DNA of 60,136 bases, counting the filler. It is 5 parts of 5 records of this genome, joined end to end, with 100 filler letters (N's around TTAATTAATTAA, not from the genome) between each part and the next. Parts side by side here need not be neighbours in the genome. Positions count along the whole stretch, not along the records: positions 18,533 to 32,134 come from DRR723986_13682; 4 more parts are not named here. One strand, 5' to 3'. Position 1 is the first letter of the stretch; each line of letters opens with the position of its first letter. Under the pieces are notes generated by a model. That model did no database searches. It saw only the letters and a list, made by a program, of their open reading frames with translations, and had not been told where the DNA came from. Shown piece after piece: positions 10,377-40,036 of this stretch. Made by a program: the position numbers and the translations under genes.

Positions 10377-11141
10377 ATGATTGAACTTACTTTCCCCGAC
10401 AATTCCGTGCGCGAATACGCGGCAGGCACCACCGGTCTCGCCGTCGCCGAAGGCATTTCCAAGTCGCTGGCCAAAAAGGCTGTGGCGATGGCTCTCGACG
10501 GGGAACTGAAAGATCTCACCGACCCGATCAGCGGCAATCACCAGATCGAGATTGTCACCCGCGACGACCCGCGCGCCCTTGAACTGATCCGCCACGATGC
10601 GGCCCACGTCATGGCCGAAGCCGTGCAGGAACTTTGGCCCGGTACCCAGGTGACCATCGGTCCGGTGATCGAAAACGGCTTTTACTACGACTTCAAGCGC
10701 GTTCACCCGGACACGGGCGCCGACTGGCCGTTCACGCCGGAAGAGCTGCCGGTTATCGAAAAGAAGATGCGCGAGATCATCGGCCGCGGTGCGCAGTTCA
10801 CCAAGGAAGTGTGGAGCCGCGACGAAGCGAAGCGCTATTTCGCAGCCAAGGGCGAGGACTACAAGGTCGAGCTCGTTGATGCGATTCCGGAAGATCAGGA
10901 ACTCAAGATCTACAAGCAGGGCCAGTGGCTGGACCTGTGCCGGGGTCCGCATATGGTCTCCACCCGGCAGATCGGCGATGCCTTCAAGCTGATGAAGGTG
11001 GCCGGCGCCTACTGGCGCGGCGACAGCAACAACGAAATGCTGACGCGCATCTACGCAACGGCGTGGCACAGCGAGAAGGAGCTCAAAGCCTACCTTCACA
11101 TGCTGGAAGAGGCCGAAAAGCGCGACCACCGCAAGCTGGGC
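10377..11141 (+). CDS. thrS: Threonine--tRNA ligase (5' part, truncated by contig end)
   Basis: TGS domain, [33 protein letters not shown]. Confidence 0.97.
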
Positions 11142-11241
11142 NNNNNNNNNNNNNNNNNNNNNNNNNNNNNNNNNNNNNNNNNNNNTTAATTAATTAANNN
11201 NNNNNNNNNNNNNNNNNNNNNNNNNNNNNNNNNNNNNNNNN
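11142..11241. other. Artificial contig spacer
   Basis: 44 N + TTAATTAATTAA (stops in all six frames) + 44 N. Confidence 0.99.
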
Positions 11242-11420
11242 CAGCTGGTGGGGAAAACTTTTGATTCAAAATCTTTCCCGTTCACCGCCCAAGCCTGCCC
11301 TCTGAGAGTCTTTCAGAATGCCTTCAGCCGTAATTCCTTGTTTCTCAAAGAATGTAGACTTCCTCCCTCATCAGCAATTCGGTGAACTAATCTCGACACC
11401 TCTGCGACGCGCCTCCCACG

Positions 11421-11588
11421 ACAAACCGCAAGCCCAAATTCGTTTATCCACTCAATCTCAACTCCAACTCCTCAATCCCAAATCCTCAATCCTAAATCCT
11501 CAATCCCAACAAACCGCATGCCCCAGTTCCGTTTAAACACAAACCTCAATTCCCCAAACCTGAACTCCCAAAACCTCAATCCTCAATC
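11421..11588 (+). repeat. Degenerate short tandem repeats (7-mer AATCCTC/AATCCCA type, 15-mer AAACCTCAATTCCCC type)
   Basis: ctcaatcccaaatcctcaatcctaaatcctcaatccc at about 11471-11507; three 15-bp units from 11541; acaaaccgca..gcc...cgttta recurs at 11421 and 11509. Confidence 0.75.
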
Positions 11589-11734
11589 GCGCACGGCTGC
11601 CATGCAGCCGCTCCCGGCAGCCGGTAATTCAGACACTGATCATCCAGCTAAACAACAGGACATCAGAATCTCAACCACCAGCATGCCGGAAAGACGCTGC
11701 GTGTGTACTCCTGAAACAATCTATTGACTGCTTG

Positions 11735-13114
11735 TCACTCGCCTGCAAACCAGCTCCGCACCTTGGACCAAAAGCCGCGCGGCTCCCCGTCATCGTTGTC
11801 TTGAACCGGTAGAAACTGACCCATTGAGTCCCGGTTGCGTTGGCGAATGCTGTTAACATCCCAGCCCGTTAAACGGGCAAGCGCCTGCGCTGTCGTTTCC
11901 TGACGCTCGCGTAATTCAGCATGATAACTTTCTAATTCTTCACAGTCGGCGTCCCCCTTCCAGGCATGCCGAATCACGTAACGCCCCTGAAAACTCTGCT
12001 GGTCGCGTGTTTCAGTAAACACAATATCTTCCGGGAAGCCCGCATTCGTATAGCGCACATGCAGACGTGTTAAATGCACCGCAGTCGCTGGAATAGTTTG
12101 CTGCTCTGTAAAGAGGCCTGCGCCCATTTCGGCCAGTAGCTGAGAAGAAGGCTGCTGCGCCACACAGGGATCACACTTGGTAGCCAAACTCCAGCTATAT
12201 TCCGTCTGGATCGTGCGCATCCCCGTGTTTTTGATCTGATTGTCAAACATTGCCATGTAGAATTCACCAAACTCACTTTTGATCCAGGTAGGAATTTCAA
12301 TGTCTGTCGGAATCTTAACCGTGCGATAGTTGCTGCTCTCCACACGGCCATGCGGCGTCAGCATGATTATTGTCAAATCCTGCGGGCCTTTGGCATTAAC
12401 CGTGCCCAGGCGAATCGGCAGCATAAACTTCTCAGTTCTGAACTCAACCTGTAGCGGCCGCAAATTTGTAGCACCTGTGCGCGCCTGCTCCTCCAGATTA
12501 ACTTTGGCAACAAAAAAACGCATGTCGCGCTTGATGTATGCTTCCAGTACATCGTCGGCGCCATCCGGAATTTTGTACTGATTCTGTTTAAGCCAGGTCT
12601 GCAGGCCACCGCTGTCGCGTGCAGAGAGTATCAGAATTTCATATTCTTCAACTGTGTACTGCGTCTCAATCTGCACACCAAAGTCTTCAGAACTGGCCTC
12701 CATTCGATCCATCGTCACTGCAACTTCTCCAAAGCTCAGCAAATCATCCAGCTTAAACTTGCGTCTGTGGATTTCGCAAGGCGGTGGATCAAAGTATTCG
12801 GCCAGGCGTGGAGCGGTATAGTCATCCAGCGCATCAATTGAGCTGCGCGGTACAACGCGTACAGCCTGACGCTCGATGACTGTTGGTACCGGGATAATCA
12901 TCGCAAATTCATTCGGCTCACCTTCGTAGTCATTTTCCATCGTAATGACCGTACGCTCGCCGTAGCGTGCAAACACAACACGTGAAGAATTGTTATAGAG
13001 GGAGGCGTCGGCCTTGGCAGCGTAGAATCCGCAAAAGGACATTGCGGCGGGTGCACAAATTAACAGCATCAGCGCGGCAGCCGGCACGCTGCGGAAACAT
13101 GTGGAACATCTCAT
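11735..13114 (-). CDS. DUF2330-like exported protein
   Basis: Signal peptide then FCGFY.AKADASLYN, FAMIIPVP, TAPRLAEYFD, FFVAKVNL, KFMLPIRLG, KCDPC, LTRLHVRY, FQGRYVIRH. Confidence 0.85.
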   Translation of the reverse strand: MRCSTCFRSVPAAALMLLICAPAAMSFCGFYAAKADASLYNNSSRVVFARYGERTVITMENDYEGEPNEFAMIIPVPTVIERQAVRVVPRSSIDALDDYTAPRLAEYFDPPPCEIHRRKFKLDDLLSFGEVAVTMDRMEASSEDFGVQIETQYTVEEYEILILSARDSGGLQTWLKQNQYKIPDGADDVLEAYIKRDMRFFVAKVNLEEQARTGATNLRPLQVEFRTEKFMLPIRLGTVNAKGPQDLTIIMLTPHGRVESSNYRTVKIPTDIEIPTWIKSEFGEFYMAMFDNQIKNTGMRTIQTEYSWSLATKCDPCVAQQPSSQLLAEMGAGLFTEQQTIPATAVHLTRLHVRYTNAGFPEDIVFTETRDQQSFQGRYVIRHAWKGDADCEELESYHAELRERQETTAQALARLTGWDVNSIRQRNRDSMGQFLPVQDNDDGEPRGFWSKVRSWFAGE

Positions 13115-13151
13115 TCTGTCTGGCTCCGGGATGAAAGGTTGTTAACAATGT

Positions 13152-14594
13152 TTAACCGCTGAAAACCGAGCGAATGCCGCTCCAGATTCTTCCAAAAAAA
13201 CCGCGGTTAGAACGGTAGTTAGCAATCCATTCGGGAACAGAGACACGATATTGACGAATTTCTGCAAGCTCCCATCCTGTTAAATCCGCGAGCGCATGTT
13301 CCGATTCGTCTTCATATTCAAAGTAGTTTCTAAAGTATTGCGCTGAGAACTGACAGTCCGACAGTCTGGATGATTTTGTGAAATTGCGAATCGTGTACTC
13401 TATTTTGAATTTGCGTGTGTCGCGTGTCTCCTTAAGCATCACATCTTCCGGAAAAGTCTCCGAATCATAAATCGCATGCAAACGCGTTAAATGCATTTTA
13501 ATCTTGCTTTGCAGAAACTCAAATGGAATTCCCAGCTTGAACAACTCACTGTTTTTTTCGGCATGTGCACGTGTGGGACTCCTATATGGCAGCGGATACA
13601 TGTGGCTGTACTCTGTAAAAAGCACCGAATGATTTTCGCGTGCAGCCCGGTGCCTAAATGCCGCCCGGTAAAATCCGCTAAAGTCTCGCCCAATATAGTT
13701 GGGCAGCACCAACTGACTCTCCATTTCAACGGTGCGATAGTTACTACTCTCTACACGTCCATGTTCGCTTAACACAAACAGCTGCAGCTCCTGATGCCCA
13801 TCCGCATTAATTGTTCCCAGGCGCACCGGCAACATAAACTTGTCTGACTCAAAGCGCACCTGTAGCGGTCGCAGACGCTGAAAATCACTTGTCTGCGAGC
13901 TGCGATCCAGACTCACTTTGGCAACAAAAAACTGCATGTTGCGCTTAACATATGCATCAAGCACATCGCGCGCTCCTTCGGGTAAAATATAATCGTTCTC
14001 ACCCAGCCAGGTAAACAAAGCTGCTCCGTCGTCGGCCTCCAGATTCTGTATATCGTATTCGGCGACGCTATAGCTGGCCGTAACACGCACAGCCTCCTCT
14101 TTATCCAGCTCCGGTTTCAGATTAGCTGTTGGACCGCGCGAAGACCGGCTATTGCCGCGTGCAGACAGAGGCGAGGATTCACCGGTTGAGGAATTGTTTG
14201 GGCAGGGATCCGGATCCTGATAAACAAGCAGCCGCGGCGCACTTGTGCGCGCCAGCCTGTCGATAAGTGCCGGCTCTACAACTCGCACGTCTTCGCGCGT
14301 GATTTTTGTCGGCACCGGCACGATCATGCCAAACTCTGTTAGCGCTCCCTGATAATCGACTTCCATTGTGATTGCCGTCTGATTGCCAATCCGTACCATC
14401 ACTACACGCGATGAATTATTGAGCAATCGGGGACTCACACGCTCCTGCTCCCTGGCACTGCTGATGTCGATCTTGGCAGCACGCGGTGGCACGGGTTTAA
14501 TAAAACAGGAACAAGTGGCTTTGGATGAAATCGGAATAAAAGCTAGCCCCAGGGCAATCAGAGCGCAGCTACATGAAAACTTGAGGAAGTGCAT
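13152..14594 (-). CDS. Second, diverged DUF2330-like exported protein
   Basis: Shares NNSSRVV, FGMIVPVP, SAPRL, FFVAKV, KFMLPVRLG, GRVESSNYRTV and LTRLH with the neighbouring paralog. Confidence 0.82.
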   Translation of the reverse strand: MHFLKFSCSCALIALGLAFIPISSKATCSCFIKPVPPRAAKIDISSAREQERVSPRLLNNSSRVVMVRIGNQTAITMEVDYQGALTEFGMIVPVPTKITREDVRVVEPALIDRLARTSAPRLLVYQDPDPCPNNSSTGESSPLSARGNSRSSRGPTANLKPELDKEEAVRVTASYSVAEYDIQNLEADDGAALFTWLGENDYILPEGARDVLDAYVKRNMQFFVAKVSLDRSSQTSDFQRLRPLQVRFESDKFMLPVRLGTINADGHQELQLFVLSEHGRVESSNYRTVEMESQLVLPNYIGRDFSGFYRAAFRHRAARENHSVLFTEYSHMYPLPYRSPTRAHAEKNSELFKLGIPFEFLQSKIKMHLTRLHAIYDSETFPEDVMLKETRDTRKFKIEYTIRNFTKSSRLSDCQFSAQYFRNYFEYEDESEHALADLTGWELAEIRQYRVSVPEWIANYRSNRGFFGRIWSGIRSVFSG

Positions 14595-14597
14595 ATT

Positions 14598-15470
14598 TTA
14601 TCCAACGATTGTTGCTTGTTGTTTAAGTGTTGGGCGCGTAACAGCGGCATGTCCGGGCCACTCAAAACGCCGGCCGGGAATCAAAATGTTTAACAGTGGC
14701 ACAGTTGGAGAAAGAATGATTAACGCGTACAACACCGCCGCCGGCTCATAGAGTGCAAAACGCCCCCAGGCAGCCGCACAGGCTAATACTATCGCGTATA
14801 GTATCCGCGCCGAACGCGCATCCGGCGTCGTTTTGGGATCTGAAATCATAAAGAACGCAAAAATCAAAAGTGTACCGCTCTGCAACTGGTGAAGCGGAAT
14901 ACTCATCGGATCCCCATACCACAATGCCCGGCCAAATAAAATGGCCGCATAACTCAGTAAAAATGCAAAGGTGATGTCCGACCGTTCGGCCTTCTGGACC
15001 ACCAGATATCCGATGAACATCAAAGCCGCACCAGTTAGAGCGACGCTGCCCCACAGCCCCGGCGAAACCCAGGCATCGTTAAACAACAGCACAGCAATCA
15101 CGATCCCAAAATTGGTCGGATTAACAATGTGTCTCCCGCGGAAACGAATCAAAAACTTGCTGCCCACCGCAATCGCTGCCGCAGCTACCGCCGTCTCCAA
15201 CGATGTAGTTCGCAAAAGCAGAATTAAACTGCCGCTCGAAATCAATGCACTGCGCGGATCAAATGCGCGTGGGAATCCGCTTCCGCGCCCTGCCAGTTTT
15301 GTGCCCACAAACTGAACTATCAGCGCGGTAAGAATTATCCCAACTGCCTGCACTGCAACAATGTCCAGTTCCAAAACAAGGATGCCATAGAACAGTAAAC
15401 AGCTTAGTGCAAAAATCTGAAAATGCCTCGGGTCGGTGCGGCGTATGCCGCCAAGAAGTTTTTCTATCAT
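14598..15470 (-). CDS. RnfD/NqrB-like membrane protein (stand-alone)
   Basis: DPRHFQI, SKFLIRFRGRHIVNPTNFG, WVSPG.WG, FFMISDPKTTP; multiple TM helices. Confidence 0.82.
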   Translation of the reverse strand: MIEKLLGGIRRTDPRHFQIFALSCLLFYGILVLELDIVAVQAVGIILTALIVQFVGTKLAGRGSGFPRAFDPRSALISSGSLILLLRTTSLETAVAAAAIAVGSKFLIRFRGRHIVNPTNFGIVIAVLLFNDAWVSPGLWGSVALTGAALMFIGYLVVQKAERSDITFAFLLSYAAILFGRALWYGDPMSIPLHQLQSGTLLIFAFFMISDPKTTPDARSARILYAIVLACAAAWGRFALYEPAAVLYALIILSPTVPLLNILIPGRRFEWPGHAAVTRPTLKQQATIVG

Positions 15471-15674
15471 GATCCATCCCAATCTGGTCCTTGGCTTGTT
15501 AACAGCTGCTGCCTTCCGTCCCGTATTCGAACAGTAGAACATTCTATTGAAATTTTGTCACATGCATCGGTTACACCTCAGTGTCTTGCCTTGCGCCGGC
15601 CGCACATATTTGCTGCTTGGCATAAACAAGCTATTTTGTGGCTTCGCGTCCTCAAAGGTCTGTCCCTGGAAACG

Positions 15675-16334
15675 ATGGAAAAATCCGTCACACAACATAG
15701 CGCTTCAAATCCCGAAACTGCGAAAGAGCTGGATCTGCTGCGGCGTATTCAGGAGGGCGACCAGCGTGCTGAGTCGATCCTTTTTAATCGCTACAAAGAT
15801 GTCTTGCAGGCCATCGTGCGCAAACGTCTCGGCAATGCTTCTGCAGATGATGTCAATGATGTCTGTTCGGACGTTTTCCTGGCAATGCTGCACAGCCTGC
15901 GCGACGGTAAATTTGATGTCAGTAAAGGCCAGTCACTCGGCTCCTACCTCTATGGTATTGCAAGATTTAAGCTGATGGACTATCTGCGCAAGAAGTCGAC
16001 GCAGACCAGTCGCCTTGATGATCTCTCCCCCGCCCAGGAACCGTCAGTTTCCGAGGATAATTCAATCGAACAGGAAGAGCGTTCGCGTATGTTGCAGGAC
16101 GCGATGGAAAAACTCAAACCCAAGTACCGCGAAGTCCTGTATTTACGCTACTTCAAAGACCTTTCGATTCCCGAAATCAGCGAAGAACTGGGCCTGCCCA
16201 CGCGCCGCGTTAGTGAACGTATTCACTATGCGGTTAAACTCCTGCGTGAGCGCTGCCGTGGAACCGACCTCTTTTCAATATTTGTGATTCCATTCCGAAT
16301 TCCAGATGTGATTTGGAGAATCCTCGAACGCTAA
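15675..16334 (+). CDS. ECF-type RNA polymerase sigma factor
   Basis: Region 2 (DVCSDVFLAM...SYLYGIARFKLMDYLRK) and region 4 (REVLYLRYFKDLSIPEISEELG...RIHYAVKLLR). Confidence 0.9.
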   Translation: MEKSVTQHSASNPETAKELDLLRRIQEGDQRAESILFNRYKDVLQAIVRKRLGNASADDVNDVCSDVFLAMLHSLRDGKFDVSKGQSLGSYLYGIARFKLMDYLRKKSTQTSRLDDLSPAQEPSVSEDNSIEQEERSRMLQDAMEKLKPKYREVLYLRYFKDLSIPEISEELGLPTRRVSERIHYAVKLLRERCRGTDLFSIFVIPFRIPDVIWRILER

Positions 16335-17804
16335 ATGCAGATACACGCTAAAAATATCGACGAATGGCTGGATGACTATCTCCTGGGAAAACTCAGTGAG
16401 GCAGCTGAGCAGTCCGCCGAACTTGTCCTGTTTGAACATCCCGAACTGGGCGCTAGGCTCGATTTCCGTCAGGAAGTGATTCGCCAGGCACAATCCAATG
16501 GTGAGTCAATTTTTGCGGCCGAGATAAAACAGGAGCAGCAACACAAGGCTCAGGCGAATTCTGCGTCAGATTCTCACTCAAATTCGCGCGCCAAAACGAT
16601 TCCCTGGTGGGAGCAGTTGCTGCTTGGTCTGCGCCGCCCGGCAGTCATTGGTGGCCTCGCTACCGCTGCTGTCCTTGTAATCGTTTCAATTCAGTTGATT
16701 CGGCCGTCCGGCGAAGTTGCTATGGACCACGGCATGGCCATGCAACAGTCCGAAAGTCCCGCTCAAACGGATCAATCCGAACGTTCACTCCGTCGCAAAA
16801 TGATGGCCGAGCGCCTGGGAAGTTTACCGGCTGAAGAAGCTCTCGCAGCCGATAGTAACACGACGAATCTGACAGCGGCAGGCCAGCAAAATATATCCAC
16901 AAATAGTGCTCAAAATTCAATCGCTGACGCCATAGATGATAACACAACTCAGCCAAGTGCTGATGAAAATGGCATTCAAGCGATTTCTGATGATTCGGGT
17001 GCTTCCACCCCGGAGGCGATCGAGGATCAGGTAGATTACGACGTTATTGAAACCCTGGCGATGGCCGATACGGAAGTGGATTTTTCCAGTGATATGGAAT
17101 ATGCTGACAGCGATAGTGATGCTTTGATGCAAGCTCCGCCGCAGGAGTCGAACAATCCTGCAAAGCCCAATTCCCCCGAAGCCAGCAGGCAGGTGGACAG
17201 CAGCATTCAACGCATGGAAAACTCTGCTGCGCAGGATAACAATTCTACAACCGAGTTCGCCGAATTCAACCGGCTCAAGGTACAGAGCGATACAGCCATC
17301 CCGCAGCGCACCGAACTTGCACAATTTCGTTTTGATCCAAATGACTCAAGCTATATCGTTGACGGCGCAACATCCCTGCCCCAGTCCCGCGCTCTGAATC
17401 GCGGCGGTGAGTTTGGCAATAACGAAATGCGCGCCTTGAAAACCGTCTCCCCTTTTCCGGTCTACGACTCCGAGCGCGACACCCTGATTGTTCCCGAGTT
17501 TACTTCCCCTTTCGCAAGCCAACGCATGGCCGACAATGTGATCGGCCGTCTGTCAAATCCAGCCAATGGCGACAGCGTTTCGAGCAGTTCCAACCTTACG
17601 TTTGAATGGACCGAACGCCAGCCCGATAATTCTTACCTGATAATTGTGGAAGCCAACCGCAACGAAGTAGCACGTTTCAAAATTGGCTCCGACCTGCGCA
17701 CATTTACACCGCAAAACCTCGATCTCAGCCCCGGCCATTACGAGTGGTTTCTGGCCGCAGACAAATATTACAGCTTGCGCGCCAACTTCTACGTACGCGA
17801 TTAA
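16335..17804 (+). CDS. Putative transmembrane anti-sigma factor
   Basis: Starts immediately after the sigma stop. N-terminal LDDYLLGKLS helix, one TM segment, long acidic linker, C-terminal beta-rich domain. Confidence 0.65.
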   Translation: MQIHAKNIDEWLDDYLLGKLSEAAEQSAELVLFEHPELGARLDFRQEVIRQAQSNGESIFAAEIKQEQQHKAQANSASDSHSNSRAKTIPWWEQLLLGLRRPAVIGGLATAAVLVIVSIQLIRPSGEVAMDHGMAMQQSESPAQTDQSERSLRRKMMAERLGSLPAEEALAADSNTTNLTAAGQQNISTNSAQNSIADAIDDNTTQPSADENGIQAISDDSGASTPEAIEDQVDYDVIETLAMADTEVDFSSDMEYADSDSDALMQAPPQESNNPAKPNSPEASRQVDSSIQRMENSAAQDNNSTTEFAEFNRLKVQSDTAIPQRTELAQFRFDPNDSSYIVDGATSLPQSRALNRGGEFGNNEMRALKTVSPFPVYDSERDTLIVPEFTSPFASQRMADNVIGRLSNPANGDSVSSSSNLTFEWTERQPDNSYLIIVEANRNEVARFKIGSDLRTFTPQNLDLSPGHYEWFLAADKYYSLRANFYVRD

Positions 17805-18020
17805 AATGTCTCTCCACACAACTTCAGGTCCGCTGGTTTAGTGACTCTCTCCCTAAGACTCTGCATCGGGTCGGACGACTTATCTTATTATTTACTAAAG
17901 ACTTGAGTGCTTCGCCTCTCGCTGCGCTCTTGGGCTTGCTGTTTTCTTTTTGTTAGTTCTTGGGTCAGAATCCCACAGCCTTTGATCCTGTATTTTAGCC
18001 GCACAAATTCAAGGCTCGCT

Positions 18021-18432
18021 GATCCAGTCTCTCAAGTTCTTGACTCGCAGATCCGGTCTCTCAGGTTCTTGACTCGTTTAGGCTTCATCGCCAAACAGTC
18101 GATTCAAAAGCAAGTCCAAAGTTCTTTTTCCCATCAGCTCAAATCCTGCCGAAAACCTCAATCTCAGGGTAGCTCAGGGTAGCTGTTAGCCTTAGGCTAA
18201 CAGCTAGTGGAGACATTCCAATGCTCCACGAATCCAGCCGCTCAACAGCCCAGACTCCCCGTTAATAGTCATGCCAAGTGCGTTGAGACTAAATGCATTG
18301 ATCTCTTCAGGATTGTGATTCGCTGATCTTCGATTCTATCAAATTTTGAGCTGTGAGCCGCAAATACACGGGGCTCCGCGAGTCTCAAGACCTGTAGATT
18401 CGACGCTGTGAGCCCTTAGGGCTGTGAGCCGT
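18021..18432 (+). repeat. Cluster of short direct and inverted repeats
   Basis: GATCCRGTCTCTCARGTTCTTGACTCG x2 (18021, 18050); CTCAGGGTAG x2; hairpin TAGCTGTTAGCC-TTA-GGCTAACAGCTA (18180-18206); GCTGTGAGCC x3 (18350, 18405, 18421). Confidence 0.75.
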
Positions 18433-18532
18433 NNNNNNNNNNNNNNNNNNNNNNNNNNNNNNNNNNNNNNNNNNNNTTAATTAATTAANNNNNNNNNNNN
18501 NNNNNNNNNNNNNNNNNNNNNNNNNNNNNNNN
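18433..18532. other. Artificial contig spacer
   Basis: N-run with TTAATTAATTAA. Confidence 0.99.
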
Positions 18533-18773
18533 CGGCAAGGAATACCAGATGCTGGAGCTTCTCTCCCTGCGCAAGGGAACGACGCTCACCAAGGAGATGT
18601 TCCTGAACCATCTCTATGGCGGCATGGACGAGCCGGAACTGAAGATCATCGACGTGTTTATCTGTAAGCTTCGCAAGAAGCTGGCAGCTGCAACCTCCGG
18701 CAAGAACTACATCGAAACGGTGTGGGGCCGAGGTTACGTTCTGCGCGAGCCGGACGTCGAAGCAGCCGCCTGA
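18533..18773 (+). CDS. ctrA: Cell-cycle response regulator CtrA (3' part)
   Basis: [50 protein letters not shown]...IETVWGRGY. Confidence 0.97.
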
Positions 18774-18797
18774 TCCAGCATCAGACGTTGACGTTTT

Positions 18798-18825
18798 AAA
18801 AGCCCCGGCACTGCCGGGGCTTTTT
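18798..18825. terminator. Bidirectional intrinsic terminator
   Basis: AAAAGCCCCGGCA-C-TGCCGGGGCTTTTT between convergent genes. Confidence 0.9.
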
Positions 18826-18856
18826 GTTGTTGAGGGTTGGATGTGACAAGGCTGAT

Positions 18857-20212
18857 CTAGCCCAGGCCACTTGCGCGCTCGGCATAGGTCAGCACAGCCC
18901 CTTCCCCCGCCTGCCCGTAATTGACAGACGCCAGCATCTCGCCGGAACTGTCATGCAGGGTAATCAACCCCTTGCGGTTCGACATCTGCATGTGATGGAC
19001 CGTCGCCCGCGTCACCGACACCTTCAAAACGGCACCTGCAATCAGGACGACCGCCTCCACCGGCTGCGGCCGGCCCATCTTGTCCCGCAGTTCGTAGCCC
19101 GTAAGGTCGATGTCCGCAGCACCGGCATTCCAGATCTCCACCCATTCCGTGCCCTGGTCATCCCCCGGCGGGTTCGGCAGGGCCGAAAGAATGCGAAGCG
19201 GTCCGTCATTCTGCATTTCAACGGTCCTTGGACGCACGACCACATTGCCAGAATCGTCCGTGCGGGTGCTGCCGTCACCAAGGAACACAGGGTAGAATGA
19301 GCGGATGTGCTGCCCCAGCGAGCCATCAGCCGTTGTCTCGTGATACATCACCAGATCGAACTTGCCCTCACCGAGCTGAACGCGCTTCTTCTGGTTGGTG
19401 AGCAAGCCGTGCAGGCCTTCGTAATAGGCAAGCGTGCCGAGCGCGAATTCGCACGCAGGACTGCTGCCGACAAAAAATCCACCCTTGCTCTTGAAGAGCT
19501 CAGCGACAAGATTGCCGGTCATGTCCTGGTGGTTCCAGACCATCTGCAGCGTCACGACATGGGGGTTTTCCGGTCCCGGGCCTCCGAGATCGTATTTGTA
19601 ACCAAGGTAGTCGACCCGGTTGTTGAGCTCGTCGAGCGCGAATTTCACCCAGGAGTGATAACCGGAGATTTCACCCTTCTCCGAGGCGGAATTCGCCCCT
19701 TTTTTGTATTTGCCCTCGCCGACAAAAACATGCTCGAAGCCGGTGCAGAAATGGGTCGACTTGCCCCGGAAGAAGTTGGTGTAGACCTCGAACCACATCC
19801 GGAACAGATCCTGCCGGAAGGTTTCAGCTGTCATGTCCCTGACAAGCTCTTCAGAAATATGCTCGAAGGCGATCTGCATCGGCCGGCTTGCAATCACCAG
19901 ATCGAGAAACCCTTCGATCTCGTCTCGCTCGGCAGGCGAAATGGTTTCCGGATCGCGAAAGTGGACCGCGTAGTTGTCCAGAAGCCGGATGAAGGACTGG
20001 TACAGATCGCTCGCCGCCATCTTGTCGAAATCGACCCGGGCAAAGAGCGGGTTCGCGGCCAGGTCGATCTGGCGGGACCCTTTGGCCTTCACCTGCTCGT
20101 CCAGCAGAATGTCGGCTGTCATGTCCGTCCAGTCGCCATCCACATTGCGCGTGCTGACGCTGAACCGGTCGGCATCTTCGTTCCAAATGGCCTGATAGAT
20201 ATGGTCTGACAT
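18857..20212 (-). CDS. XendoU/EndoU-type endoribonuclease fused to a C-terminal lamin-tail domain
   Basis: TGFEHVFVGE, ISGYHSW, KSKGGFFVGSSPACEFALGTL (XendoU His-His-Lys pattern); C-terminal ALPNPPGDDQGTEWVEIWN...IDLTGYELRD (LTD). Confidence 0.82.
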   Translation of the reverse strand: MSDHIYQAIWNEDADRFSVSTRNVDGDWTDMTADILLDEQVKAKGSRQIDLAANPLFARVDFDKMAASDLYQSFIRLLDNYAVHFRDPETISPAERDEIEGFLDLVIASRPMQIAFEHISEELVRDMTAETFRQDLFRMWFEVYTNFFRGKSTHFCTGFEHVFVGEGKYKKGANSASEKGEISGYHSWVKFALDELNNRVDYLGYKYDLGGPGPENPHVVTLQMVWNHQDMTGNLVAELFKSKGGFFVGSSPACEFALGTLAYYEGLHGLLTNQKKRVQLGEGKFDLVMYHETTADGSLGQHIRSFYPVFLGDGSTRTDDSGNVVVRPRTVEMQNDGPLRILSALPNPPGDDQGTEWVEIWNAGAADIDLTGYELRDKMGRPQPVEAVVLIAGAVLKVSVTRATVHHMQMSNRKGLITLHDSSGEMLASVNYGQAGEGAVLTYAERASGLG

Positions 20213-20299
20213 GTACGCCTCAACCTGAAGTAACAAGAAGTAGGCTTTCACACGTTTATGACATTTTCACTACCAGACGAAAACTCGTAACTGTCCGGC

Positions 20300-20333
20300 A
20301 AAAACAAAAAAGCCGGCGTTGCCGCCGGCCTTT
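20300..20333 (-). terminator. Intrinsic terminator after the MBL gene
   Basis: Minus strand GCCGGCG-GCAA-CGCCGGC followed by TTTTTTGTTTTT. Confidence 0.8.
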
Positions 20334-20353
20334 CCGCACTTGCGATGGCAGGA

Positions 20354-21325
20354 TCAGAGCTGCAGTTGGTATGACGCAGGGACGTAACGGAAACCGCTGT
20401 CGTTGGTCTCCACGTAGCCGACCGCCGGGAACGGCATGTGATAGCCCACGAACGGGATCTTGTCGGCGGCCAGCATGCCGAAGACGGTCTTGCGGGTGGC
20501 CGCGGCGCCTTCCTTGTCCATGTCGAAACGCACTTCCCATTCGGGATGCGCCAGCGACCAGACGTAGTGATTGGCGGTATCCGCTGTTATGGCAAGCTGC
20601 TTGCCGTCGCTTTCAAGCATGTAGATCATGTGACCGGGGGTATGACCTGCAGCAGCCATCGCGGTGACACCCGTCGTCACGCTGCCGCCGTCATCGAGGA
20701 AAGTCATTTTCTCCGCCAACGGTTTGACGTGGCTCGCCAACAGCTTGGTCACCCCATTGGCTTCGGCATCCATTGCCGCCCAGAAGTCATATTCCTTCTG
20801 CCCGGTCACATAGCGGGCATTGGCAAAGGTCGGCAAGCCGCCTTCCATCAGACCGCTGACGTGGTCGGGATGCATGTGCGTCAGCACCACCACGTCAACC
20901 TGCTCCGGCGTGTATCCCGCATTTTCCAGCGCGGCGCGCATCTTGCCACGGCCTGGCCGTGCACCTTCGCCATTGCCGGTGTCGAACAGGATCAATTCGC
21001 TGCCCGTGTTCACGAGCGTTGGCGTGAAACTGATCTGGAAACTGTCGTTGGGCAGGAAGTTATCGGCATTGGTCGCAGAAAATGTATCCGCGTCCACATT
21101 CATGGCGAAGGTCTTCTGCGGTTCGGTCAGGGAGACTGCACCGTCGTGCAGAGTGGTCACCTCGAACCCGCCTACGGAATAGCGGGCAACCGGCGCCGGC
21201 ACAGAGGCCTGCTTTTCTGCAGCCGCATGGACAACGGTGGTTCCGGCAAGACTTGCCCCGGCAAGCGCACCACCTGCTCCCAGAAGCGCCGCGCGACGTG
21301 TGAGTTCAACTTTTATCTCGGTCAT
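20354..21325 (-). CDS. Tat-exported MBL-fold metallo-hydrolase
   Basis: TRRAALLG Tat signal; THMHPDH, GHTPGH, YHMPFP. Confidence 0.9.
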   Translation of the reverse strand: MTEIKVELTRRAALLGAGGALAGASLAGTTVVHAAAEKQASVPAPVARYSVGGFEVTTLHDGAVSLTEPQKTFAMNVDADTFSATNADNFLPNDSFQISFTPTLVNTGSELILFDTGNGEGARPGRGKMRAALENAGYTPEQVDVVVLTHMHPDHVSGLMEGGLPTFANARYVTGQKEYDFWAAMDAEANGVTKLLASHVKPLAEKMTFLDDGGSVTTGVTAMAAAGHTPGHMIYMLESDGKQLAITADTANHYVWSLAHPEWEVRFDMDKEGAAATRKTVFGMLAADKIPFVGYHMPFPAVGYVETNDSGFRYVPASYQLQL

Positions 21326-21563
21326 ATTCCCACTCCCTGCAATTCCGATCCATGAAAACAGTCCCGCAGTCGAACACCCCGAGTGCCCGGCAGGACGCAA
21401 AGCTTACGTTCGTGAAAATGGAATGGATGCAGATGCAGACAAGTGCTGTTCGCCGCCAGCCGGATAAACTTCACGAGAGCGAACGAACGAAATGAATTTC
21501 AAAAACTTGCTCACTCGCAACAGACCGCTTTTCTGACGGGATTTCTTCACGGTGCAGCGAATG

Positions 21564-21588
21564 AAAAAGGCGGCCAGAGGCCGCCTTT
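21564..21588 (-). terminator. Intrinsic terminator after cheR
   Basis: AAAAAGGCGGCC-AGA-GGCCGCCTTT. Confidence 0.8.
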
Positions 21589-21635
21589 GAACTTGATCAG
21601 AAATATCCAAACCGTGCTGAAGAAGGGACGCAGGT

Positions 21636-22526
21636 CTAACGCTGCAGACCCAGGCCTGCTCCAGCTCCCACGGCCAGGCGCGGCGTTGCTGCCGTGCCGG
21701 TCGCGGCCTGTGCAGCCTGTTTCTTCTGGAAGAGGCCTCGCTTACCGGGCACCGGCTTGAAGGCATCCGTCAGACCGACCACGGTTTCTGCGGCACCGAG
21801 AACGAGATAACCATCATCCGGCAGGGATTTCGCCAACCGGCCGAGGATTTCCGTCTTGGTTGCCTGATCGAAGTAGATCAGCACGTTGCGGCAGAAAATG
21901 ATGTCGAACTCGCCCAGATGGGTGAAGCTTTCCAGCAGGTTCAGCTTCTTCCATTCGATCATGGCGCGCATGCCGGCATTGATCTGCCACATGTCACCCT
22001 TCTGCTCGAAGTATTTCAGCAGCATCTGGATCGGCAGACCACGCTGAACCTCGAACTGGCTGTAGAGGCCGGTCTTGGCCTTTTCCAGCACTTCGTTGGA
22101 GAGGTCCGTACCCAGGATCCGGGTTCGCCAGCCAGCCATCTTGGCCGCATCTTCCTTCAGGCAGATGCCCAGGGAATAAGGCTCCTGCCCGGTAGAGGCA
22201 GCCGCACACCAGATCTTGATCTGCTTGCGTGTCGCGCGGCTTTCCAGCAGCGCCGGCAGCATCGTGTCCTTGAAGTGCTCGAACGGTGTCTTGTCGCGAA
22301 AAAAGAACGACTCGTTGGTCGTCATCGCCTCGACGACGTCCGTTTCCAGCGCTCTGTTGGTGCCGCGCTGAAGCTGCTGGATTACCGCACTGAGTGTTTC
22401 CAGTTTGGAGCTGCGTGCGATCGGCAGAAGACGGCTTTCGACCAGGTATTGCTTGTCGTTGGACAGAACCAGGCCGGAGCGGGTCTTCAGGAAGTTTTTC
22501 AGAAACTCGAACTCGCTCGGGGTCAT
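21636..22526 (-). CDS. cheR: Chemotaxis methyltransferase
   Basis: TTNESFFFRD, AASTGQEPYS, FDIIFCRNVLIYF. Confidence 0.96.
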   Translation of the reverse strand: MTPSEFEFLKNFLKTRSGLVLSNDKQYLVESRLLPIARSSKLETLSAVIQQLQRGTNRALETDVVEAMTTNESFFFRDKTPFEHFKDTMLPALLESRATRKQIKIWCAAASTGQEPYSLGICLKEDAAKMAGWRTRILGTDLSNEVLEKAKTGLYSQFEVQRGLPIQMLLKYFEQKGDMWQINAGMRAMIEWKKLNLLESFTHLGEFDIIFCRNVLIYFDQATKTEILGRLAKSLPDDGYLVLGAAETVVGLTDAFKPVPGKRGLFQKKQAAQAATGTAATPRLAVGAGAGLGLQR

Positions 22527-32134: not shown

Positions 32135-32234
32135 NNNNNNNNNNNNNNNNNNNNNNNNNNNNNNNNNNNNNNNNNNNNTTAATTAATTAANNNNNNNNNN
32201 NNNNNNNNNNNNNNNNNNNNNNNNNNNNNNNNNN
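32135..32234. other. Artificial contig spacer
   Basis: N-run with TTAATTAATTAA. Confidence 0.99.
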
Positions 32235-39936: not shown

Positions 39937-40036
39937 NNNNNNNNNNNNNNNNNNNNNNNNNNNNNNNNNNNNNNNNNNNNTTAATTAATTAANNNNNNNN
40001 NNNNNNNNNNNNNNNNNNNNNNNNNNNNNNNNNNNN
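39937..40036. other. Artificial contig spacer
   Basis: N-run with TTAATTAATTAA. Confidence 0.99.

Follow-up and report, generated by a model that had tools for sequence, protein, structure and literature searches.

EndoU enzymes matter both to eukaryotic RNA biology and to the way coronaviruses evade immunity. This work is about a bacterial member of the group, from a marine Roseibium, encoded in a 60,136-nucleotide stretch of DNA, five contigs joined end to end, that we will call the window. Its closest described relatives are Xenopus XendoU and human EndoU (hEndoU), and a 2025 study of the human enzyme provides the standard against which we compare it (PMC11961692). That study argues that the N-terminal extension of hEndoU is a Ca2+ sensor, and terms it eukaryote-specific. 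Ca site 1 is made of E217 and E284, site 3 of D179 and D315 (D or N among eukaryotes), and E290 passes the signal to H285. The substitutions E284A, D179A and E290A each lose activity, and mouse EndoU is most active at 1-2 mM Ca2+. Many animal EndoUs carry a signal peptide (PMC11961692); the window protein does not.

Other described systems share parts with this protein. Bacterial EndoU-fold toxins (CdiA-CT of E. coli STECO31, 5hkq; PF14436; Tox-EndoU of polymorphic toxin systems) have the same superfamily fold, and the two-histidine chemistry is probably common to them as well (PMC3482391, PMC7297114). These toxins are described as short C-terminal domains of large secreted proteins, cofactor-independent and with adjacent immunity genes (PMC11961692). 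The window protein, in contrast, is 451 aa long with an RNase domain from about residue 4, and it has no trafficking or repeat region and no immunity gene. Nidovirus NendoU (Nsp15) shares the catalytic core, but the coronavirus enzyme is reported to lack the metal-coordination sites conserved in eukaryotic EndoUs (PMC11961692), which the bacterial protein has. ExeM/NucH-type nucleases likewise combine a nuclease domain with a lamin-tail Ig-like domain (LTD). ExeM is a DNase/RNase of the endonuclease/exonuclease/phosphatase (EEP) type that has a signal peptide and an LTD at its N-terminus and an anchor at its C-terminus, whereas the window protein is a XendoU enzyme with a C-terminal LTD and no export signal. 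ExeM without its LTD has reduced nuclease activity in vitro, although the activity is not abolished (PMC6085458).

Bacterial relatives of the eukaryotic enzymes have been touched on before. Mushegian 2020 briefly notes an EndoU-like nuclease of Calothrix that bridges eukaryotic and bacterial sequences (PMC7297114), and Zhang et al. 2011 remark that some bacterial versions are nearer the eukaryotic ones (PMC3113570). A full-text literature search found no paper joining 'endou' with 'lamin tail domain', and among the matches listed for literature naming PF09412 none is on bacterial XendoU-LTD proteins. XendoU-LTD is a populous bacterial family, annotated but unstudied. Judging from its sequence, the window protein is almost certainly a functional RNase. 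We believe, with a probability of about 0.55, that it is a cytoplasmic, divalent-cation-gated, U-specific RNase, latent at low Ca2+, with the LTD as an accessory module and the gene as an accessory cassette.

The XendoU domain, the lamin tail and the calcium-sensor residues

The open reading frame (ORF) is intact. An alternative GTG start would give 18857..20251 (-) and 13 more residues. Homologues share the start MSxxIYQ and a GAGG lies 7-8 nt 5' of the ATG, so the ATG start and the coordinates 18857-20212 are correct. The protein is 99% identical to the copy in the nearest genome, G001 (6.7 Mb, 3 contigs, 99% completeness), which serves as our reference for the locus. Pfam assigns XendoU (PF09412) to residues 30-308 with E 1.9e-54 and 185.1 bits (cut-off 32.3), covering profile positions 17-262 of 262. 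It assigns the LTD (PF00932) to residues 335-433 with E 3.6e-9 and 37.4 bits, which is marginal here (cut-off 34.3), while homologues score up to 58 bits. The same scan at E <= 1 matched no further family, PF14436 EndoU_bacteria included, so the profile of the bacterial toxins is not matched; an NCBIfam scan matched no family at all.

Structure leads to the same assignment. By sequence the protein matches Xenopus XendoU (2c1w) at E 1.2e-27 and human EndoU (9ftw) at E 3.5e-22. An AlphaFold2 model built from a 31-sequence alignment (mean pLDDT 77.4; residues 315-331 form a disordered linker) has both the beta-rich catalytic core and the alpha-helical N-terminal extension. The predicted structure aligns to 2c1w with Z 29.4 (root mean square deviation, rmsd, 2.5 over 264 residues, model 1-314) and to 9ftw with Z 26.9 over 263 residues. 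Since the second alignment spans model residues 1-311 and chain residues 140-409, the N-terminal extension is included in it. Residues 332-436 of the model align to lamin Ig-like tails with Z of about 10-11 and a Foldseek probability of 1.00. The LTD matches the globular domain of lamin A/C (1ifr) with Z 11.1 and rmsd 2.7 over 94 of 113 residues. Among ranks 3-13 of the structure matches, 10 of the 11 chains are lamin tails (Z 9.6-11.1); rank 13 is MERS Nsp15 (5yvd, Z 8.8, 150 residues). The first-pass annotation had called this a full XendoU domain, not the short bacterial toxin domain, with a C-terminal LTD and no signal peptide. The motifs it quoted are all found in the translation, and the profile scores and structure alignments agree with both domain assignments. 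Only 4 residues precede the conserved domain and the protein therefore has no signal peptide; most homologues are alike in this.

The catalytic residues H161, H186 and K241 align with H162, H178 and K224 of XendoU and with H285, H300 and K343 of hEndoU (HMMER alignments). This His-His-Lys triad is kept in all 51 bacterial and all 9 eukaryotic rows of the alignment used for the tree described below. In sequence alignment the sensor residues E217, E284, D179, D315 and E290 of hEndoU correspond to E89, E160, D50, D201 and E166 of the window protein. The dispensable site-2 residue E226 becomes E98, and the poorly conserved site-4 residue D330 becomes H218. Each of E89, E98, E160 and E166 is found in 51 of 51 bacterial rows and D50 in 49 of them; position 201 varies, with N in 38 rows, D in 10, A in 2 and R in 1. 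All side-chain ligands of Ca sites 1 and 3, and the relay glutamate, are conserved in the bacterial family by alignment. This conservation over 51 rows leads us to conclude that the family keeps the whole Ca sensor at the level of sequence.

The window protein thus resembles eukaryotic XendoU/EndoU in having the full domain, the N-terminal helical extension, the triad, the ligands of Ca sites 1 and 3 and the relay glutamate. It differs in being bacterial, in carrying a C-terminal LTD, in having no somatomedin-B domains, in being only 26-32% identical and in falling in a separate clade. It had been proposed that the enzyme is regulated through the LTD. Nothing tested speaks for that, and the N-terminal residues of the predicted Ca2+ sensor are the better-founded candidate for regulation.

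A bacterial family and its place in the tree

It is important to see how large the bacterial family is. A word-indexed search (8000 scored candidates) gave 188 proteins with E no higher than 1e-3. Among representatives at 50% identity, searched exhaustively, 61 clusters reached E <= 1e-30, and the contigs of a one-genome-per-species set contain 160 confirmed stretches. Our statements on the neighbourhoods and lineages of loci refer to the best 80 of these 160 stretches. The 80 loci are mainly from filamentous cyanobacteria (Moorena, Symploca, Nostoc, Calothrix, Richelia, Coleofasciculus and others), with Myxococcota, Planctomycetota, Bacteroidota, Acidobacteriota, Latescibacterota and a few Pseudomonadota as well. 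The earlier description of the subfamily as mainly eukaryotic with sparse bacterial members understated the bacterial side, given 188 matches and 160 stretches. Both Pfam domains are present in 104 of the 120 matches listed and XendoU alone in the other 16. The homologues go by source names such as 'lamin tail domain-containing protein', 'endoribonuclease' and 'poly(U)-specific endoribonuclease'. Since the gene is an ordinary member of a large annotated family, it is not rare in itself. Two metagenomic representatives, P0156 and P0158, have unusual architectures. A 743-aa relative joins Endonuclease_NS, XendoU and LTD in one chain, without a signal peptide, and a 740-aa relative has two near-identical XendoU domains and an LTD.

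We built a quick tree with IQ-TREE (LG+C20+F+G4, SH-aLRT support only) from 312 XendoU-domain columns and 60 rows. The rows are the window protein, 45 of the 80 contig loci, 5 loci from the genome search, and 9 eukaryotic representatives (fish, lancelet, sea cucumber, a euglenid, two green algae and a fern). The 45 loci were picked by hand, keeping all non-cyanobacterial lineages and thinning near-duplicate cyanobacteria. A branch with 100% SH-aLRT separates the 9 eukaryotic from the 51 bacterial rows. The five Roseibium rows form a clade (99) within the bacterial radiation, with Salinarimonas as its sister (98); the tree does not settle the sister of the two together. Phylum labels change 13 times on the tree against a minimum of 8, which makes transfer among bacteria likely. 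The root of the tree is imposed, so it gives no direction of gene transfer between the domains of life.

The presence of a eukaryote-type, full-length domain in a bacterium might suggest a recent gift from a eukaryote, for instance an algal or animal host. Roseibium often lives alongside marine eukaryotes. We find this scarcely credible. The Roseibium rows group with Salinarimonas among the bacteria, on the far side of the fully supported branch from the eukaryotes. Outside the Alphaproteobacteria the nearest relatives, cyanobacteria among other bacteria, share about 50% identity with the protein, while the eukaryotic structures share 26-32%. The GC content of the gene, 0.55-0.61, is like that of its surroundings. 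Since bacteria and eukaryotes form separate clades, there was no recent gift from a eukaryote.

The N-termini of the family and its neighbours bear on where the enzyme acts. Of the 120 homologues listed, 87 start no more than 15 residues from the motif, 20 have non-hydrophobic extensions, 7 fall outside the motif pattern and 6 have a signal-peptide-like N-terminus. In 17 of the 80 loci, all of them cyanobacterial and from several orders, the gene immediately upstream of XendoU-LTD, on the same strand, is an Exo_endo_phos (PF03372, EEP) gene. The EEP gene and XendoU-LTD may be a functional nuclease pair in cyanobacteria. Together with the Endonuclease_NS fusion, these neighbours tie the family to bulk nucleic-acid degradation and not to precise RNA processing. 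When we clustered neighbours over the 80 loci in search of a conserved partner gene, only this cyanobacterial EEP gene and lineage-local synteny came up.

The strongest rival to a cytoplasmic enzyme is a secreted or released RNase that acts on environmental or matrix RNA, whether for scavenging nucleotides and phosphorus or for remodelling biofilm. The LTD would anchor it to polymer or to the cell surface, and seawater Ca2+ would keep it active at all times. This rival has the same Ca logic as our reading and differs only in the site of action; conserved Ca sites would suit a millimolar-Ca milieu. Extracellular nucleases, ExeM among them, carry LTDs (PMC6085458), and LTDs are also known from putative DNA-degradation loci in bacteria of marine sediments (PMC8289736). 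The six signal-peptide-like homologues, the upstream EEP nuclease/phosphatase genes and the one homologue fused to a DNA/RNA non-specific endonuclease domain can all be read the same way. However, the window protein and 87 of the 120 homologues have no N-terminal extension of any kind, and no secretion-system gene is adjacent. Even the cyanobacterial EEP neighbours that we examined are without a signal peptide, as is the Endonuclease_NS fusion. On balance we consider an extracellular enzyme unlikely, and prefer a cytoplasmic one.

The locus in Roseibium

The five contigs of the window are joined by four linkers (N44-TTAATTAATTAA-N44) at 11142-11241, 18433-18532, 32135-32234 and 39937-40036. 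The RNase gene lies on the contig at 18533-32134, which matches G001 at 98% identity over all 13602 bases in a single place. The contig to its left (11242-18432, GC about 0.50) was searched for in G001 and no match was found, so nothing left of 18533 is a neighbour of the RNase gene. Given this difference between the two contigs, the assembly may contain mixed organisms or strain-specific DNA.

The gene order in G001 is cheA-cheW-cheY-cheB-cheR, a metallo-beta-lactamase-fold (MBL) hydrolase, XendoU-LTD, convergent ctrA and fliI-fliJ. The first-pass annotation placed the RNase gene beside ctrA and between ctrA and the che cluster. It is indeed adjacent and convergent to ctrA, although ctrA here is cut by the contig end. 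On the other side the placement needs correcting, since the MBL gene at 20354-21325 (-) lies between the RNase gene and cheR and the che cluster is therefore not directly adjacent. In the other carriers (G447, G465, G439 and the Roseibium metagenome-assembled genome L009) the RNase gene also adjoins ctrA with the MBL gene nearby. For G447 the identities are 82% (XendoU-LTD), 89% (MBL) and 99-100% (CtrA); for G465, G439 and L009 the figures are 70-71%, 77-81% and 99-100%. The divergence of XendoU-LTD among carriers thus tracks that of its MBL neighbour. The MBL gene is present in G004, G013, G005, G009 and G010, and because it is kept where the RNase is missing we consider it conserved backbone and not a partner. 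Its product has an RR, alanine/glycine-rich N-terminus that we read by eye as a putative Tat signal. It also has weak PADLOC matches to LmuA (E 2.5e-6) and RTasMBL (E 7.9e-3), which probably reflect the shared MBL fold only.

The RNase gene is not core. PF09412 is found in 4 of 72 genomes of Roseibium/Labrenzia species (68 have no match), in 4 of 401 genomes sampled from the order, where the other three are only 27-29% identical, and in 3 of 401 sampled from the class; G001 is included in each count. In one close relative, G004, precisely this gene is missing: between flanks of 85-95% DNA identity it has 53 bp in place of the 1518 bp of G001, a stretch that runs from 12 bp past the MBL stop to 33 bp past the RNase stop. 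In G013 the MBL gene and ctrA are 138 bp apart. The same locus in every carrier and a divergence that follows the neighbour's argue that the gene is old in the subclade or exchanged through flank homology, and that this is not a fresh insertion. It forms an accessory cassette of one gene that occupies a fixed site and is either ancestral to the subclade with repeated loss or moving by way of homologous flanks.

Some further observations concern the site and its relatives. Between MBL and XendoU-LTD, L009 (5181-5921), G465 and G439 have a gene for a periplasmic solute-binding protein (SBP_bac_3, E 9.6e-8), so the intergenic slot near ctrA has taken up genes more than once. The gap between MBL and ctrA is about 830 bp in G005 (G005:C1, about 1715815-1716646) and G009 (G009:C1, about 460988-461820), against 53-138 bp in G004 and G013; the slot there may hold something other than XendoU. 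Elsewhere in the order, G137 (G137:C6 161777-162522; L007/L008) has a distant XendoU homologue in two frames, covering profile positions 36-179 and 201-262, which may be a frameshifted or split gene.

These data bear on the idea that the protein is an always-on cytoplasmic enzyme that processes or decays specific RNA targets, as XendoU processes snoRNA, with metal sites that are structural only. Its fold and triad are those of the eukaryotic processing enzyme, it has no signal peptide, and a conserved 5' block of its own (below) suggests regulated expression. Yet the gene is dispensable, being absent from 68 of 72 genus genomes and replaced by a clean 53-bp scar in a close relative. A broad U-specific RNase that is always on and has no inhibitor would be hazardous to the cell. 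The relay glutamate in 51 of 51 bacterial rows argues for switching. We therefore find a constitutive processing enzyme quite unlikely, and a gated RNase remains our reading.

The patchy distribution and the single-gene indel could also be those of an anti-phage (abortive-infection) effector or a polymorphic-toxin-type interbacterial toxin. Many bacterial EndoU-fold domains are toxins (PMC3113570, PMC3482391), and in principle a Ca2+-triggered RNase might sense membrane damage by phage. The first-pass annotation suggested an anti-phage role, and this finds no footing in our data: no PADLOC model matched (0 families at E <= 0.01 for the RNase protein in the 2023 library of PADLOC-DB 2.0), and no defence or mobile-element genes lie beside the gene. 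Besides the missing PF14436 match, the model resembles the CdiA-CT EndoU toxin (5hkq) only marginally in fold (Foldseek, E 1.5e-2, TMt 0.48). There is no N-terminal trafficking domain, and all Roseibium carriers have the gene at the same locus. The first-pass annotation was right that no immunity gene is adjacent. The RNase gene is flanked by the MBL terminator and convergent ctrA, and no small adjacent ORF is conserved across the 80 loci (the largest cluster, 8 of 80, consists of shadow ORFs inside a neighbouring gene), in a search that would miss non-conserved or very small (<45 aa) genes. An effector or toxin of this kind is, in our view, highly improbable. We find no support for the proposed links to ctrA, chemotaxis or phage defence.

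Transcription signals around the gene are partly its own. It had been said to have its own terminators, and the hairpins are real, but neither belongs to the gene alone. The downstream hairpin (18798-18824) is shared with ctrA; it looks like a terminator for ctrA, and in the direction of RNase transcription its U-run is weaker (4 U). The upstream hairpin (20300-20334), which the consensus scan did not list, is that of the MBL gene, and by its predicted fold it separates transcription of the RNase gene from that of the MBL gene. A 28-nt block upstream of the start codon, with the core TGAAA.TG.CA..AA..GTG, is kept in 6 of 6 upstream regions (window, G001, G447, G465, G439 and L009) though the upstream gene differs. 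The cassette carries its own 5' region, and we consider the block a candidate promoter or operator. A sigma-70-like scan of 18533-21800 gave 0 sites, a scan that is uninformative for an alphaproteobacterium, and by eye no sigma-54 or EcfG-like spacing fits the block convincingly. Control by CtrA was considered and rejected: 18533-21400 contains no TTAA-N7-TTAA site with <=1 mismatch, and the 11 matches in the window are all elsewhere. Contigs assembled from RNA libraries (4 runs from 4 studies, 95-99% identity) cover the whole gene in one piece in X1 (18566-21218) and X7 (18533-21400). The X2 contig covers the gene and extends to 20672. The X6 contig ends at 20140, 72 nt short of the start codon; it leaves 20141-20333 uncovered, and we draw no reading from it.

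Table 1. Features of the RNase locus in the window, with two upstream EEP genes in the coordinates of their own loci
Feature	Position	Strand	Basis or remark
Artificial contig linker (N44-TTAATTAATTAA-N44)	18433..18532	.	DNA left of the linker is not a gene neighbour
ctrA 3' end, truncated by contig start, last 74 codons left	18533..18773	+	Full-length ctrA in G001
Hairpin shared by RNase gene and ctrA	18798..18824	.	+ strand scan; - strand fold -22.3 kcal/mol, z -5.07
Extent of presence/absence polymorphism	18825..20342	.	Mapped from G001 via CDS (coding sequence) ends; matching flanks stop at L002 9515 and start again at 11034
CDS of XendoU-LTD protein, 451 aa, stop included	18857..20212	-	ORF list, translation
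Lamin-tail domain, residues 335-433, Ig-like beta sandwich	18914..19210	-	PF00932, 1ifr, Foldseek
Interdomain linker, residues 315-331	19220..19270	-	pLDDT < 50; variable and gapped in family alignment
XendoU catalytic domain with N-terminal helical extension, residues 1-314	19271..20212	-	PF09412, structure alignments
Conserved block 5' of the gene, 31-58 nt before the ATG (candidate promoter or operator)	20243..20270	-	Alignment of six upstream regions
Terminator hairpin of MBL gene	20300..20334	-	Read directly; fold -24 kcal/mol, z -2.56, then U-run
MBL-fold hydrolase gene, 323 aa, RR-containing N-terminus	20354..21325	-	Pfam Lactamase_B, E 3.2e-16
EEP gene upstream of XendoU-LTD, example	L042 4940-5947	same strand	15 further loci
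EEP gene upstream of XendoU-LTD, example	L022 3671-5323	same strand	

A possible calcium switch and what it would mean

We can now set out how a cytoplasmic, gated RNase would work. By analogy with the eukaryotic enzymes, it would cut single-stranded RNA at uridylates and leave 2',3'-cyclic phosphate ends. A millimolar divalent cation (Ca2+, possibly Mn2+) would switch it on allosterically. Free Ca2+ in the bacterial cytoplasm is sub-micromolar. With no signal peptide and no immunity partner, the enzyme would leave the cell protected by that low level, and a broad RNase without an inhibitor would be tolerable because it is off there. It would become active when Ca2+ rises, as upon envelope damage, lysis or release into seawater. 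The LTD would serve as an accessory module for binding, as in other bacterial nucleases that carry one, and it probably binds something such as nucleic acid, membrane or an envelope polymer.

Several points weigh against this reading. Activation of the bacterial members by Ca2+ is predicted from sequence alignment, and in 38 of the 51 bacterial rows position 201 is N, not D. Xenopus XendoU was first described as Mn2+-dependent (PMC11961692), which makes the activating ion uncertain. LTDs are a usual feature of bacterial hydrolases that are secreted or associated with membranes (PMC6085458, citing Mans et al. 2004), a habit that would fit an extracellular enzyme better than a cytoplasmic one, and six listed homologues have N-termini like signal peptides. 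The RNA-library contigs bridge convergent genes and terminators and could come from DNA, so they do not prove transcription. What would trigger the enzyme in the cell, and what the cell would gain from it, are entirely conjectural.

A bolder idea follows the same lines, and we put it forward only tentatively, as something we doubt more than we believe. The Ca2+-sensor extension of EndoU may be a bacterial invention. Cytoplasmic XendoU-LTD proteins would be latent RNases that need no immunity protein, held off by Ca2+ in the nanomolar range and firing at envelope breach, phage lysis or developmental cell death, and the eukaryotic Ca-activated EndoU would have descended from such a nuclease. The enrichment in filamentous cyanobacteria and myxobacteria and the occasional fusion with Endonuclease_NS would fit a damage-triggered latent RNase.

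As annotation the gain is modest, since the gene is an accessory member of an annotated, unstudied family. The interest is at the level of the family. Bacteria hold a complete version of the supposedly eukaryote-specific Ca-sensor EndoU, usually fused to an LTD and usually cytoplasmic. The bacterial relatives are small, soluble and easily expressed models of the Ca switch, and the family bears on the origin of the eukaryotic enzyme. It also raises the idea that cytoplasmic Ca2+ may serve as the safety catch of a broad RNase that has no immunity protein.

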